Positions 9,024-9,806 of a DNA stretch of 64,000 nt are shown piece by piece. Source of the DNA: an uncultured bacterium (GTDB taxonomy: Bacteria; Babelota; Babeliae; Babelales; RVW-14). A model generated the notes under the pieces. It made no database searches and was not told the origin of the DNA. It was given only the letters and a program-made list of their open reading frames with translations. Each line of letters opens with the position of its first letter. The first letter of the stretch is position 1. The translations under genes were made by a program, and so were the position numbers. The stretch is taken from positions 9,273 through 73,272 of the forward strand of contig CAIKAH010000021.1 in NCBI GenBank assembly GCA_903825355.1, in the 5' to 3' direction.

Positions 9024-9806
9024 TTATCTTGTAGGGTATGCAGTTTTAATTACATATTGGCAAGGGGTTGTTCTGTCGTAGTGTATAACTACTTTTACTT
9101 TAGTTAATCCCCTTCTTACAAGTCCGCCAGAGACGTCTTCTCCTATGGCGGTTTCAGTATCTATGGTATTTAAAGCAAGGTCTGTTTGCTTGCTTTTGAT
9201 TGGTTTGCTTATTAGCCAGGCATTAATATCATCTTTGTTTCGTTCAAGAGCAAGCTCAATAGAAGTTCTAGCGGCATCTTCAGTGTAAAATCTGCCAGTG
9301 ATTCTTGCTTGCCGAGAAGCTAAAGCGCTAAAACTAGCAAGTGCTACGTGGTCACGGTAGCAATGGCCTCCCCATTTATCAAAAGAGGGACTTTCTGCAT
9401 ATACGCTTTCTATTTCTGCAAGAATACTGCGCGGTGATTTTGCACAAGCAGAGACGGAGCTTGGGCTAGAAATCAGAGAAGTTATTCCTGCAGGGCTGGG
9501 TGTTCTGCTAGGGCTCGCTTTTGCTGCAGGGCTGGGTGCTCCTAATGTAGGAAATTCACTACTAGCCAAAAAGCTAGGAGCGCTTGAATAGTGGCGCATG
9601 CTTTTTTCAGGGGAGGTAGATAACATTGGCTCACTAATTCTATGAGGCCTTGAAGTATGGCGTGGCGGCATGCCTGCTCCTACAGCAGTCAAATCTAAGG
9701 GCTCGGGTTTTCGGTGATGTAGTTTTTTGCCTGCCGCGTTTACTTCATTAACTGTCTGTAATCCTGCAAAAACGGTAAGAAGAAAAATTATACGTGTATT
9801 CATCAT
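9024..9806 (-). CDS. secreted protein: signal peptide + Ser/Pro-rich linker + C-terminal toxin-like (GGH...TAYP) domain
   Basis: ORF 9024..9815. GGAGG sits just upstream of ATG ATG at 9806/9803, giving MMNTRIIFLLTVFAGLQTVNEVNA-AG. Residues ~30-135 are S/P-rich with SP/TP motifs. The C-terminus is WGGHCYRDHV...FYTEDAARTSIELALERNKDDINAWL...IGEDV...VKVVIHYDRTTPCQYVIKTAYP. Confidence 0.7.
   Translation of the reverse strand: MMNTRIIFLLTVFAGLQTVNEVNAAGKKLHHRKPEPLDLTAVGAGMPPRHTSRPHRISEPMLSTSPEKSMRHYSSAPSFLASSEFPTLGAPSPAAKASPSRTPSPAGITSLISSPSSVSACAKSPRSILAEIESVYAESPSFDKWGGHCYRDHVALASFSALASRQARITGRFYTEDAARTSIELALERNKDDINAWLISKPIKSKQTDLALNTIDTETAIGEDVSGGLVRRGLTKVKVVIHYDRTTPCQYVIKTAYPTR

Follow-up and report, generated by a model that had tools for sequence, protein, structure and literature searches.

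The closest described relative of the protein considered here is the C-terminal toxin of a CdiA protein from Yersinia kristensenii, CdiA-CT(Ykris), which has the same fold as vertebrate RNase A (PMC5435912). Its RNase activity needs His175, Arg186, Thr276 and Tyr278 (Batot et al. 2017, PMC5435912), residues that the mutagenesis primers of that study place in 'DRHV' (His175), 'LLNRV' (Arg186) and 'ITGYP' (Thr276/Tyr278) (PMC5435912). A second protein, Ribocin (RbcN, PA14_21120/PA3318) of Pseudomonas aeruginosa, combines a Sec signal with an RNase A-fold domain (PLoS Biol 2026, PMC13189344). Its H60, T159 and Y161 are required for activity, its cleavage site is helix 69 of eukaryotic ribosomes, bacterial ones being spared, and it has been produced in E. 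coli without its signal peptide, with no self-immunity protein being reported; it reaches the host cytoplasm independently of known secretion systems, and its family is reported chiefly from Pseudomonadota (PMC13189344). Third, amoeba endosymbionts (Amoebophilus, Parachlamydia, Odyssella and Waddlia) possess toxin-domain effectors that lack immunity genes (Zhang et al. 2012, PMC3482391), and our literature search returned no RNase A-like and no Dependentiae example of such immunity-less effectors. Here we describe a gene on the minus strand at 9024-9803 of a 64,000-nucleotide stretch of contig CAIKAH010000021.1 from an uncultured bacterium (hereafter the window), the product of which we consider fairly probable to be an exported, metal-independent endoribonuclease of the Pfam family PF18431 that has been freed from delivery and immunity and turned on the RNA of a protist host.

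As an earlier note on this DNA, made from its sequence alone (the original prediction), had proposed, the protein is built of a signal peptide, a Ser/Pro-rich linker and a C-terminal domain. These parts, together with the codons of the residues discussed below, are located as follows.

9024-9803, minus strand: coding sequence of the putative exported RNase A-like protein, 259 aa, with the stop codon at 9024-9026 (from the list of open reading frames and the sequence)
9735-9803, minus strand: predicted Sec-type signal peptide, aa 1-23 (MNTRIIFLLTVFAGLQTVNEVNA), judged by eye from the sequence
9402-9734, minus strand: linker, aa 24-134, 111 aa, basic and Ser/Pro/Ala-rich, delimited by composition
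9027-9401, minus strand: C-terminal RNase A-like domain, aa 135-259 (125 aa), within which the PF18431 match spans 9033-9368
9348-9350, minus strand: codon of His152 (in RDHV), aligned with catalytic His175 of CdiA-CT(Ykris) and invariant in the family alignment
9312-9314, minus strand: codon of Arg164 (in ASRQ), aligned with Arg186, kept in the ortholog P0002 and near-invariant in the family
9036-9044, minus strand: codons of Thr254-Ala255-Tyr256 (in KTAYP), equivalent to Thr276/Tyr278 of CdiA-CT(Ykris) and to T159/Y161 of Ribocin

The C-terminal domain contains the motifs GGHCYRDHV and KTAYP, and its proposed identity as an RNAse_A_bac/CdiA-CT domain is borne out by both profile and structure comparisons. 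PF18431 (RNAse_A_bac) is the single Pfam match in the window protein, at an E value of 2.2e-10 and 41.8 bits against a curated gathering cut-off of 27, and it covers the whole model (positions 1-113/113). The precomputed annotation of P0001, a database entry identical to the window protein (259 aa; sources NCBI/ENA), and of P0002, the ortholog encoded by the more distant genome L001, also gives PF18431, and we regard the window protein as almost certainly a member of this family. A phmmer search of PDB sequences yielded an end-to-end, albeit weak, alignment with 5E3E chain B (E 0.53). An AlphaFold (AF2) model computed from a 16-sequence family alignment has a mean predicted local distance difference test (pLDDT) score of 79.6, with a core above 90; a first model, based on a 2-sequence alignment, reached a pLDDT of 57 and was discarded. 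When the predicted structure was compared with the PDB by Foldseek, the sole significant matches were 5e3e_B/D, that is, the CdiA-CT of Y. kristensenii (E 2-3e-6, probability 1.00, TM scores of 0.73/0.79 and a root-mean-square deviation of 2.9 A over 121 columns), the next match having an E value of 0.26. The modelled domain is thus predicted to adopt an RNase A-like fold as seen in 5E3E. Considering the Pfam E value of 2.2e-10, the Foldseek E value of 2e-6 and the presence of an ortholog at this locus in another genome, the similarity of the domain lies far beyond chance.

The four residues that the activity of CdiA-CT(Ykris) needs all have equivalents in the window protein (H152, R164, T254 and Y256), and all of them are kept in the ortholog P0002, the domain of which is 48% identical, as well as in the paralog P0063 described below. 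This conservation suggests that the window protein is likely to be an active RNase. Whereas the original prediction had drawn attention to the histidines of both GGH and DHV, it is the DHV histidine (H152, cf. His175) that corresponds to the catalytic one; the GGH histidine is also invariant across the PF18431 family alignment.

How does the window protein compare with the described systems? With CdiA-CT(Ykris) of 5E3E it has PF18431, the GGH-x4-H and T-x-Y-P motifs and the four required residues in common, and neither of the two has a disulfide scaffold (the domain contains two Cys only, of which Cys148 is conserved in the ortholog and Cys248 is not) or a second catalytic His; their identity is only 21-25%. 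Unlike CdiA-CT(Ykris), it has no CdiA/Rhs carrier or VENN-type boundary and no CdiI_2, but its own Sec signal and a 111-aa linker, and its producer is an intracellular parasite of protists as opposed to a free-living competitor. Ribocin is likewise a small stand-alone Sec-signal protein, in which GGH-x3-H and N-T-x-Y-P occupy positions equivalent to those of the window protein's motifs, but it differs in having no Pfam match and no long linker. Membership of the window protein in the Ribocin family was rejected, with an hhalign probability of 4% over 14 columns (the last strand, NTxYP versus KTAYP) and a BLASTP E value of 17. The endosymbiont effectors (PMC3482391) resemble it in their Sec-dependent export, the lack of an immunity gene, their origin in a bacterium living within protists and an inferred host target; they differ in carrying REase, OTU, UBCH or Ntox19 domains, often on large multi-domain or ankyrin-repeat proteins. 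The NCBIfam entry NF041883 (RNase A-like domain lipoprotein) also has an RNase A-like domain behind an export signal and off a toxin carrier, and membership in it was likewise dismissed (16.5 bits versus a cut-off of 200, and no lipobox Cys). Finally, the proteins of the vertebrate RNase A superfamily (RNase 1, angiogenin, amphinase) are, like the window protein, small, basic and secreted, with the first catalytic His equivalently placed. Strict membership in that superfamily was rejected as well, there being no sequence similarity, no His-Lys-His triad (Thr254/Tyr256 replace the second His) and no conserved disulfides.

The Pfam scan found no CdiA/FHA, Rhs, LXG, MuF or other delivery domain in the window protein, in keeping with the earlier proposal that a Sec signal stands in place of a delivery domain of contact-dependent inhibition (CDI) or Rhs type, nor does the protein contain a VENN or other pre-toxin boundary motif. 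In its canonical relatives P0025 and P0016, one or two PF18593 (CdiI_2) genes lie 10-12 nt downstream of the toxin. A CdiI_2 hidden Markov model (HMM) built from the immunity proteins of these two loci recovered its positive controls at E values of 1e-49 to 1e-65 and, applied to six frames, found nothing in the 64-kb window, in L001, in the near-identical strain L085, or in L090 and L093, which carry the paralog (best E 2.6). The absence of an adjacent immunity gene, as originally noted, is therefore real. One candidate, an open reading frame (ORF) of 61 aa at 9931-10116 on the plus strand, was rejected as an immunity gene: in L001 its frame is broken by indels, it has no Pfam match, and it overlaps the sufB promoter region that is conserved in species without the RNase. 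With neither a carrier nor an adjacent immunity gene, the window protein belongs to no CDI or polymorphic toxin system. As a side observation on the canonical PF18431 loci, two of them (L095 2333-3739 and L096 3026-3931) have two full CdiI_2 (PF18593) genes in tandem, and the former contains additional degenerate CdiI_2-like fragments (L095 3328-3739) that make it resemble an array of orphan immunity genes.

The signals for expression and the borders of the locus are the following.

9809-9813, minus strand: Shine-Dalgarno sequence GGAGG, 5 nt ahead of the start codon at 9803, kept in L001, L085 and L086
9852-9879, minus strand: candidate sigma-70-like promoter TTGACA-16 nt-TATATT, from a consensus scan (11/12 positions; a consensus match alone)
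8947-8999, both strands: bidirectional intrinsic terminator common to the RNase gene and the convergent mnmG, from an inverted repeat and folding
8935-10040: lineage-specific insertion of ~1.1 kb, made up of terminator, gene and promoter, which separates the mnmG stop from the conserved sufB promoter region

The ORF has three candidate in-frame ATGs, at 9803, 9806 and 9815, the last of which overlaps the Shine-Dalgarno sequence. The most likely true start, as judged from the sequence, is that at 9803 (MNTR..., 259 aa), because GGAGG lies 5 nt upstream of it, because it is the sole ATG retained in the near-identical strain L085, and because the database protein P0001 also has 259 aa. Hence, of the coordinates 9024-9806 given originally, the ORF and its stop hold, and the start at 9806 (MMNTR...) gives way to the likelier one at 9803. 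The database annotation of MBM3893048.1, a strain variant, reads 'hypothetical protein [Candidatus Dependentiae bacterium]'. In the predicted signal peptide, a basic n-region (MNTR) precedes a hydrophobic core of 11 residues (IIFLLTVFAGL), and V-N-A stands ahead of the predicted cleavage site, with small residues at -3/-1; inspection of its sequence revealed neither a lipobox Cys nor a twin-Arg motif. With these features the protein is very likely to be exported by Sec.

The linker is composed of 20.7% Ser, 14.4% Pro and 11.7% Ala, has a pI of 10.1 and seven SP/TP dipeptides, and is probably disordered, to judge by its composition. It has no Pfam match at E<=10, and the label 'eukaryote-like' given to it originally describes composition only, with no domain or homology behind it. 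Within it we observe a 36-nt tandem duplication (9485-9505 / 9521-9541) that encodes a repeated PSPA(A/G) motif and is missing from the L001 ortholog, from which it follows that the linker expands and contracts by short duplications and indels.

Both ends of the transcription unit appear to be maintained. Upstream, TTGACA and the spacer are identical in L001, L085 and L086, and the second hexamer differs by one base (TATAAT in L001). Downstream, the bidirectional terminator followed by the convergent mnmG, already described in the original prediction, is confirmed as a perfect 25-nt inverted repeat (8947-8971 / 8975-8999) with a 3-nt loop and A-runs and T-runs at its sides, and its folding energies on the two strands are -38.6 and -38.0 kcal/mol (z -8.4 and -11.9). 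The hairpin of L001 has another stem sequence at the same position, so the structure has been kept. The gene is flanked by the convergent mnmG (7066-8931) downstream and by sufB (10120-11532) upstream, and no conserved ORF lies between it and these neighbours.

In a species-level genome collection, the nearest relatives of the MnmG encoded in the window belong to TM6/Babeliales metagenome-assembled genomes (MAGs), at 87, 84, 77 and 67% identity, and by this comparison, together with the annotation of MBM3893048.1, the source organism is identified as a Dependentiae (TM6) MAG. Members of the Dependentiae live obligately inside protist cells, as parasites or symbionts (PMC6561590). In the cultured member Chromulinavorax destructans, 44% of coding sequences have signal peptides, secreted nucleases and proteases are predicted to degrade the host, and Sec alone has been described; this bacterium buds off outer-membrane vesicles at an early stage of infection and depends on the import of nucleosides (PMC6561590).

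The RNase gene is carried by the window, by the near-identical lake strains L085-L088 and by one more distant genome, L001 (as P0002), whose MnmG is 92% identical to that of the window, and its ORF is intact in at least four assemblies besides being kept as a 45%-identical ortholog. It is absent from four related species (L002-L005), in which only ~85-290 nt separate mnmG from the adjoining sufB, and a four-way DNA alignment shows one clean insertion of ~1.1 kb in the window and L001 relative to L002 and L003, with neither flanking repeats nor a mobile-element signature at its borders. The original prediction had allowed that the domain might turn out to be a common periplasmic housekeeping fold; a gene missing from four relatives that keep mnmG beside sufB is not what such a fold would show. 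No further ortholog was found by full-length alignment in 185,579 species genomes or in the JGI metagenome collection, which returned the known contig only, and the gene is thus confined to a very narrow clade. An HMMER scan of 1.84 billion representative proteins gave 18 sequences at E <= 1e-3, the nearest beyond the clade having an E value of 1e-5. The RNase gene has been acquired recently. Other, unstudied PF18431 proteins with signals exist in the databases, P0007 and P0019 among them. The latter (238 aa; L082 6001-8888) has a signal peptide and a Q/S/A/R-rich linker, and its gene lies 12 nt upstream of that for a coupling protein (TraG/VirD4-like) of a type IV secretion system, with no immunity gene between the two; its contig (L082) is 73.6 kb long, has a GC content of 51.5% and encodes an aquaporin that groups with Planctomycetaceae sequences.

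Comparison of the window with L001 gives the following amino-acid identities and nonsynonymous divergences (dN).

MnmG: identity 92%, dN 0.05
RNase, whole protein: identity 45%, dN 0.40
RNase, domain: identity 48%, dN 0.44
RNase, linker: identity 33% with large indels, dN 0.48

The RNase hence evolves ~9x faster than mnmG. Its ratio to synonymous divergence, dN/dS, is ~0.2-0.3, a value that is indicative only since dS is saturated (1.4-2.3), and the comparison points to fast evolution under net purifying selection.

The signal peptide departs from this pattern, being identical at 22/23 positions between the window and L001 orthologs, with coding DNA that is 98% identical (dS 0.06). Conservation of this kind could have reflected selection on the signal itself or a common N-terminal cassette, and we rejected both because L085 differs at 6/23 residues. 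In L085 and L086 these differences are accompanied by differences at ~20% of nucleotides in 9738-9856, with 97-100% identity to the window over the remaining gene and its immediate flanks. What the window contains is an L001-like patch of ~120 bp, with a dS of 0.06 versus ~1.5 in its flanks, and this patch is the product either of homologous recombination between co-occurring lineages or of a strain-chimeric assembly. Patches of ~80% identity interrupt the 100%-identical sequence of the window and L085 elsewhere as well (10400-10700, 8060-8360 and 6530-6680).

A second gene of the same design occurs in the lineage. MBM3893312.1, a protein of the same Dependentiae MAG series (locus-tag prefix FJ365), falls into the cluster of P0005, the best match beyond the clade, and P0063 (356 aa; L093 3302-4372) is a full-length paralog with a Sec signal (MNYKNYLVGLLSVVFCTQIDA) that differs from that of the window protein, a basic S/P/A/R/T-rich linker of 224 aa (pI 9.6) and a PF18431 domain (E 3e-12) that is 31% identical to the window domain. 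It resides at another locus, with a convergent transaldolase gene 48 nt later and no immunity gene beside it; the 64-kb window itself contains no paralog of the RNase gene. In a lake strain (Ga0194129/Ga0194124; L090 6778-8672 and L091 968-2862), a gene for an IS30-like transposase (HTH_38 and rve) lies in the paralog and replaces its first 225 nt including the signal peptide, leaving a truncated gene without a signal. Because the paralog, too, is built of a signal, a long basic linker and an RNase domain, and because it has been lost to an insertion sequence (IS), we conclude that this design recurs in the lineage and undergoes rapid turnover.

The catalytic set, the export signal, the gene's own promoter and terminator, the lack of carrier and immunity, the recent gain, the fast divergence and the intracellular life of the producer are all in keeping with an exported RNase directed at host RNA. 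According to this model, the gene would be transcribed from its own promoter, and the unfolded precursor would be exported by Sec, with the signal peptide being cut after Ala23. The domain would fold outside the cytoplasm, such that export or target specificity, in place of an inhibitor, would shield the producer, and the protein would then pass the outer membrane or leave together with it, vesicles being one possible vehicle. In the host, RNA would be cleaved by transesterification to leave 2',3'-cyclic phosphate ends, with His152 and Tyr256 transferring protons, Arg164 stabilising the transition state and Thr254 assisting. We infer, then, enzymatic activity, export beyond the periplasm, a host target and, as the outcome, either translation arrest or RNA breakdown.

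That the window protein acts on host RNA is, in our estimate, reasonably probable. The original prediction had already favoured a host-directed effector, and the proposal is strengthened by the intracellular lifestyle of the Dependentiae and by the precedent of Ribocin; the endosymbiont effectors (PMC3482391) provide a further precedent. Several points weigh against it. A Sec signal by itself reaches the periplasm, and no outer-membrane step has been identified; moreover, the signal peptide was identified by eye alone. Immunity families are diverse and CdiI_2 alone was profiled, and an immunity gene could sit beyond the 64-kb window. The saturated dS makes dN/dS rough. Finally, the paralog is disrupted by an IS in one strain, so such genes are dispensable.

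The alternative that survives these considerations best is that of a nutrient-scavenging RNase, with the same chemistry and export serving another purpose, namely the digestion of bulk host or environmental RNA to feed nucleoside salvage. This would be consistent with the dependence of Dependentiae on such salvage and with the nucleases and proteases they are predicted to secrete against host polymers (PMC6561590), as well as with the behavior of CdiA-CT(Ykris), a non-specific RNase acting on tRNA and rRNA, and both the absence of an immunity gene from the 64-kb window and the position of the RNase gene among housekeeping genes would speak for it as well. However, a metabolic need predicts conservation, while the gene is absent from four relatives, changes at ~9x the rate of mnmG and has a paralog that was lost to an IS. 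Furthermore, products with 2',3'-cyclic or 3'-phosphate ends would require more enzymes to become nucleosides, and none is linked to the RNase gene. Patchy distribution and rapid evolution thus favour a specific translation-blocking effector over bulk digestion; the metabolism of the phylum nonetheless keeps scavenging alive, as an explanation that we consider unlikely but worth retaining.

A quite improbable alternative is that the protein is a diffusible, bacteriocin-like RNase directed against competing bacteria, with immunity encoded elsewhere or unneeded owing to export. What would speak for an interbacterial role is that CDI, Rhs and other polymorphic toxins are the best-known setting of PF18431, that the majority of the nearest database relatives resemble the C-termini of such toxins, two of them with CdiI_2 genes, and that the disordered N-terminal region is reminiscent of the translocation domains of nuclease colicins. 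Yet the protein has no domain for delivery or receptor binding and none recognisable as serving translocation, an immunity gene is neither adjacent at any of the loci nor present within the 64 kb, the paralog likewise lacks one, and an obligate intracellular life offers few contacts with competitors. Least probable of all is a periplasmic RNase that serves the cell itself, as RNase I does in E. coli, or an inactive leftover of a former polymorphic toxin, for although a Sec signal alone predicts the periplasm and no outer-membrane secretion step was identified, the gene is not conserved among relatives, its ORF is intact in at least four assemblies and in the 45%-identical ortholog with dN/dS <1 and the functional residues kept, and its expression signals are conserved, including a terminator whose structure persists despite a differing stem sequence.

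Turning to the remainder of the window, two genes that are conserved in L085 come after sufBD (12359-14000). One codes for a DUF2608 / HAD-like hydrolase whose N-terminus has a hydrophobic, signal-like segment, the other for a D-Ala-D-Ala dipeptidase (Peptidase_M15/VanY), and the two proteins may be part of an exported hydrolase set typical of Dependentiae. At 3142-6822 on the plus strand, five successive genes (148, 267, 146, 217 and 250 aa) each have an N-terminal signal peptide and no Pfam match; DNA identity between the window and L001 is ~45-55% over this region and ~80% over mnmG. The last of the five proteins (6070-6822) and its positional counterparts in L002 and L003 end in a short Trp/Tyr-rich tail (KGWWAWLLPNK, KPWYYFGFGLWR and RPAWYWRLLGY), which is preceded by acidic low-complexity sequence. 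A Pfam match is also lacking for four consecutive ORFs (325, 319, 258 and 277 aa; 14086-17748) and for a 906-aa ORF (36526-39246), and a scan of the window for RNA families returned tRNAs only.

Taken together, one may picture the two paralogs as an immunity-free, Sec-exported branch of RNase A-like proteins in which the long basic Ser/Pro-rich leader serves as a module for exit from the bacterium or for entry into or targeting of the host cell, and in which one specific host RNA is cut and protist translation is stopped; as a joint reading of all these features this is speculative and, in our view, doubtful. If true, the cut RNA would be an rRNA helix or a tRNA, as with Ribocin and angiogenin, and the phylum Dependentiae would have its first defined nuclease effector. 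The bacterial RNase A fold would then have been recruited against eukaryotes a second time, independently and in a sequence family distinct from that of Ribocin, and the protein would be a concrete case of the eukaryote-associated, already secreted kind of bacterial RNase from which animal RNase A has been proposed to derive (PMC7297114).

There is no new mechanism or kind of system here, the evolutionary pattern being a known one, and a standard Pfam scan already yields the domain. The theme set by Ribocin, that of a Sec-exported and immunity-less RNase directed against eukaryotic RNA, which has been experimental only since 2026, would nevertheless be extended to a second family and to an obligately intracellular phylum. 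The history of the locus, with its clean gain of 1.1 kb, its rapid divergence and a paralog hit by an IS, indicates that such genes are gained and lost fast. Dependentiae are widespread and almost uncultured, and most of the proteins in their large predicted secretomes have no known function; one of these proteins would now gain a precise biochemical assignment, with its residues and its class of substrate.

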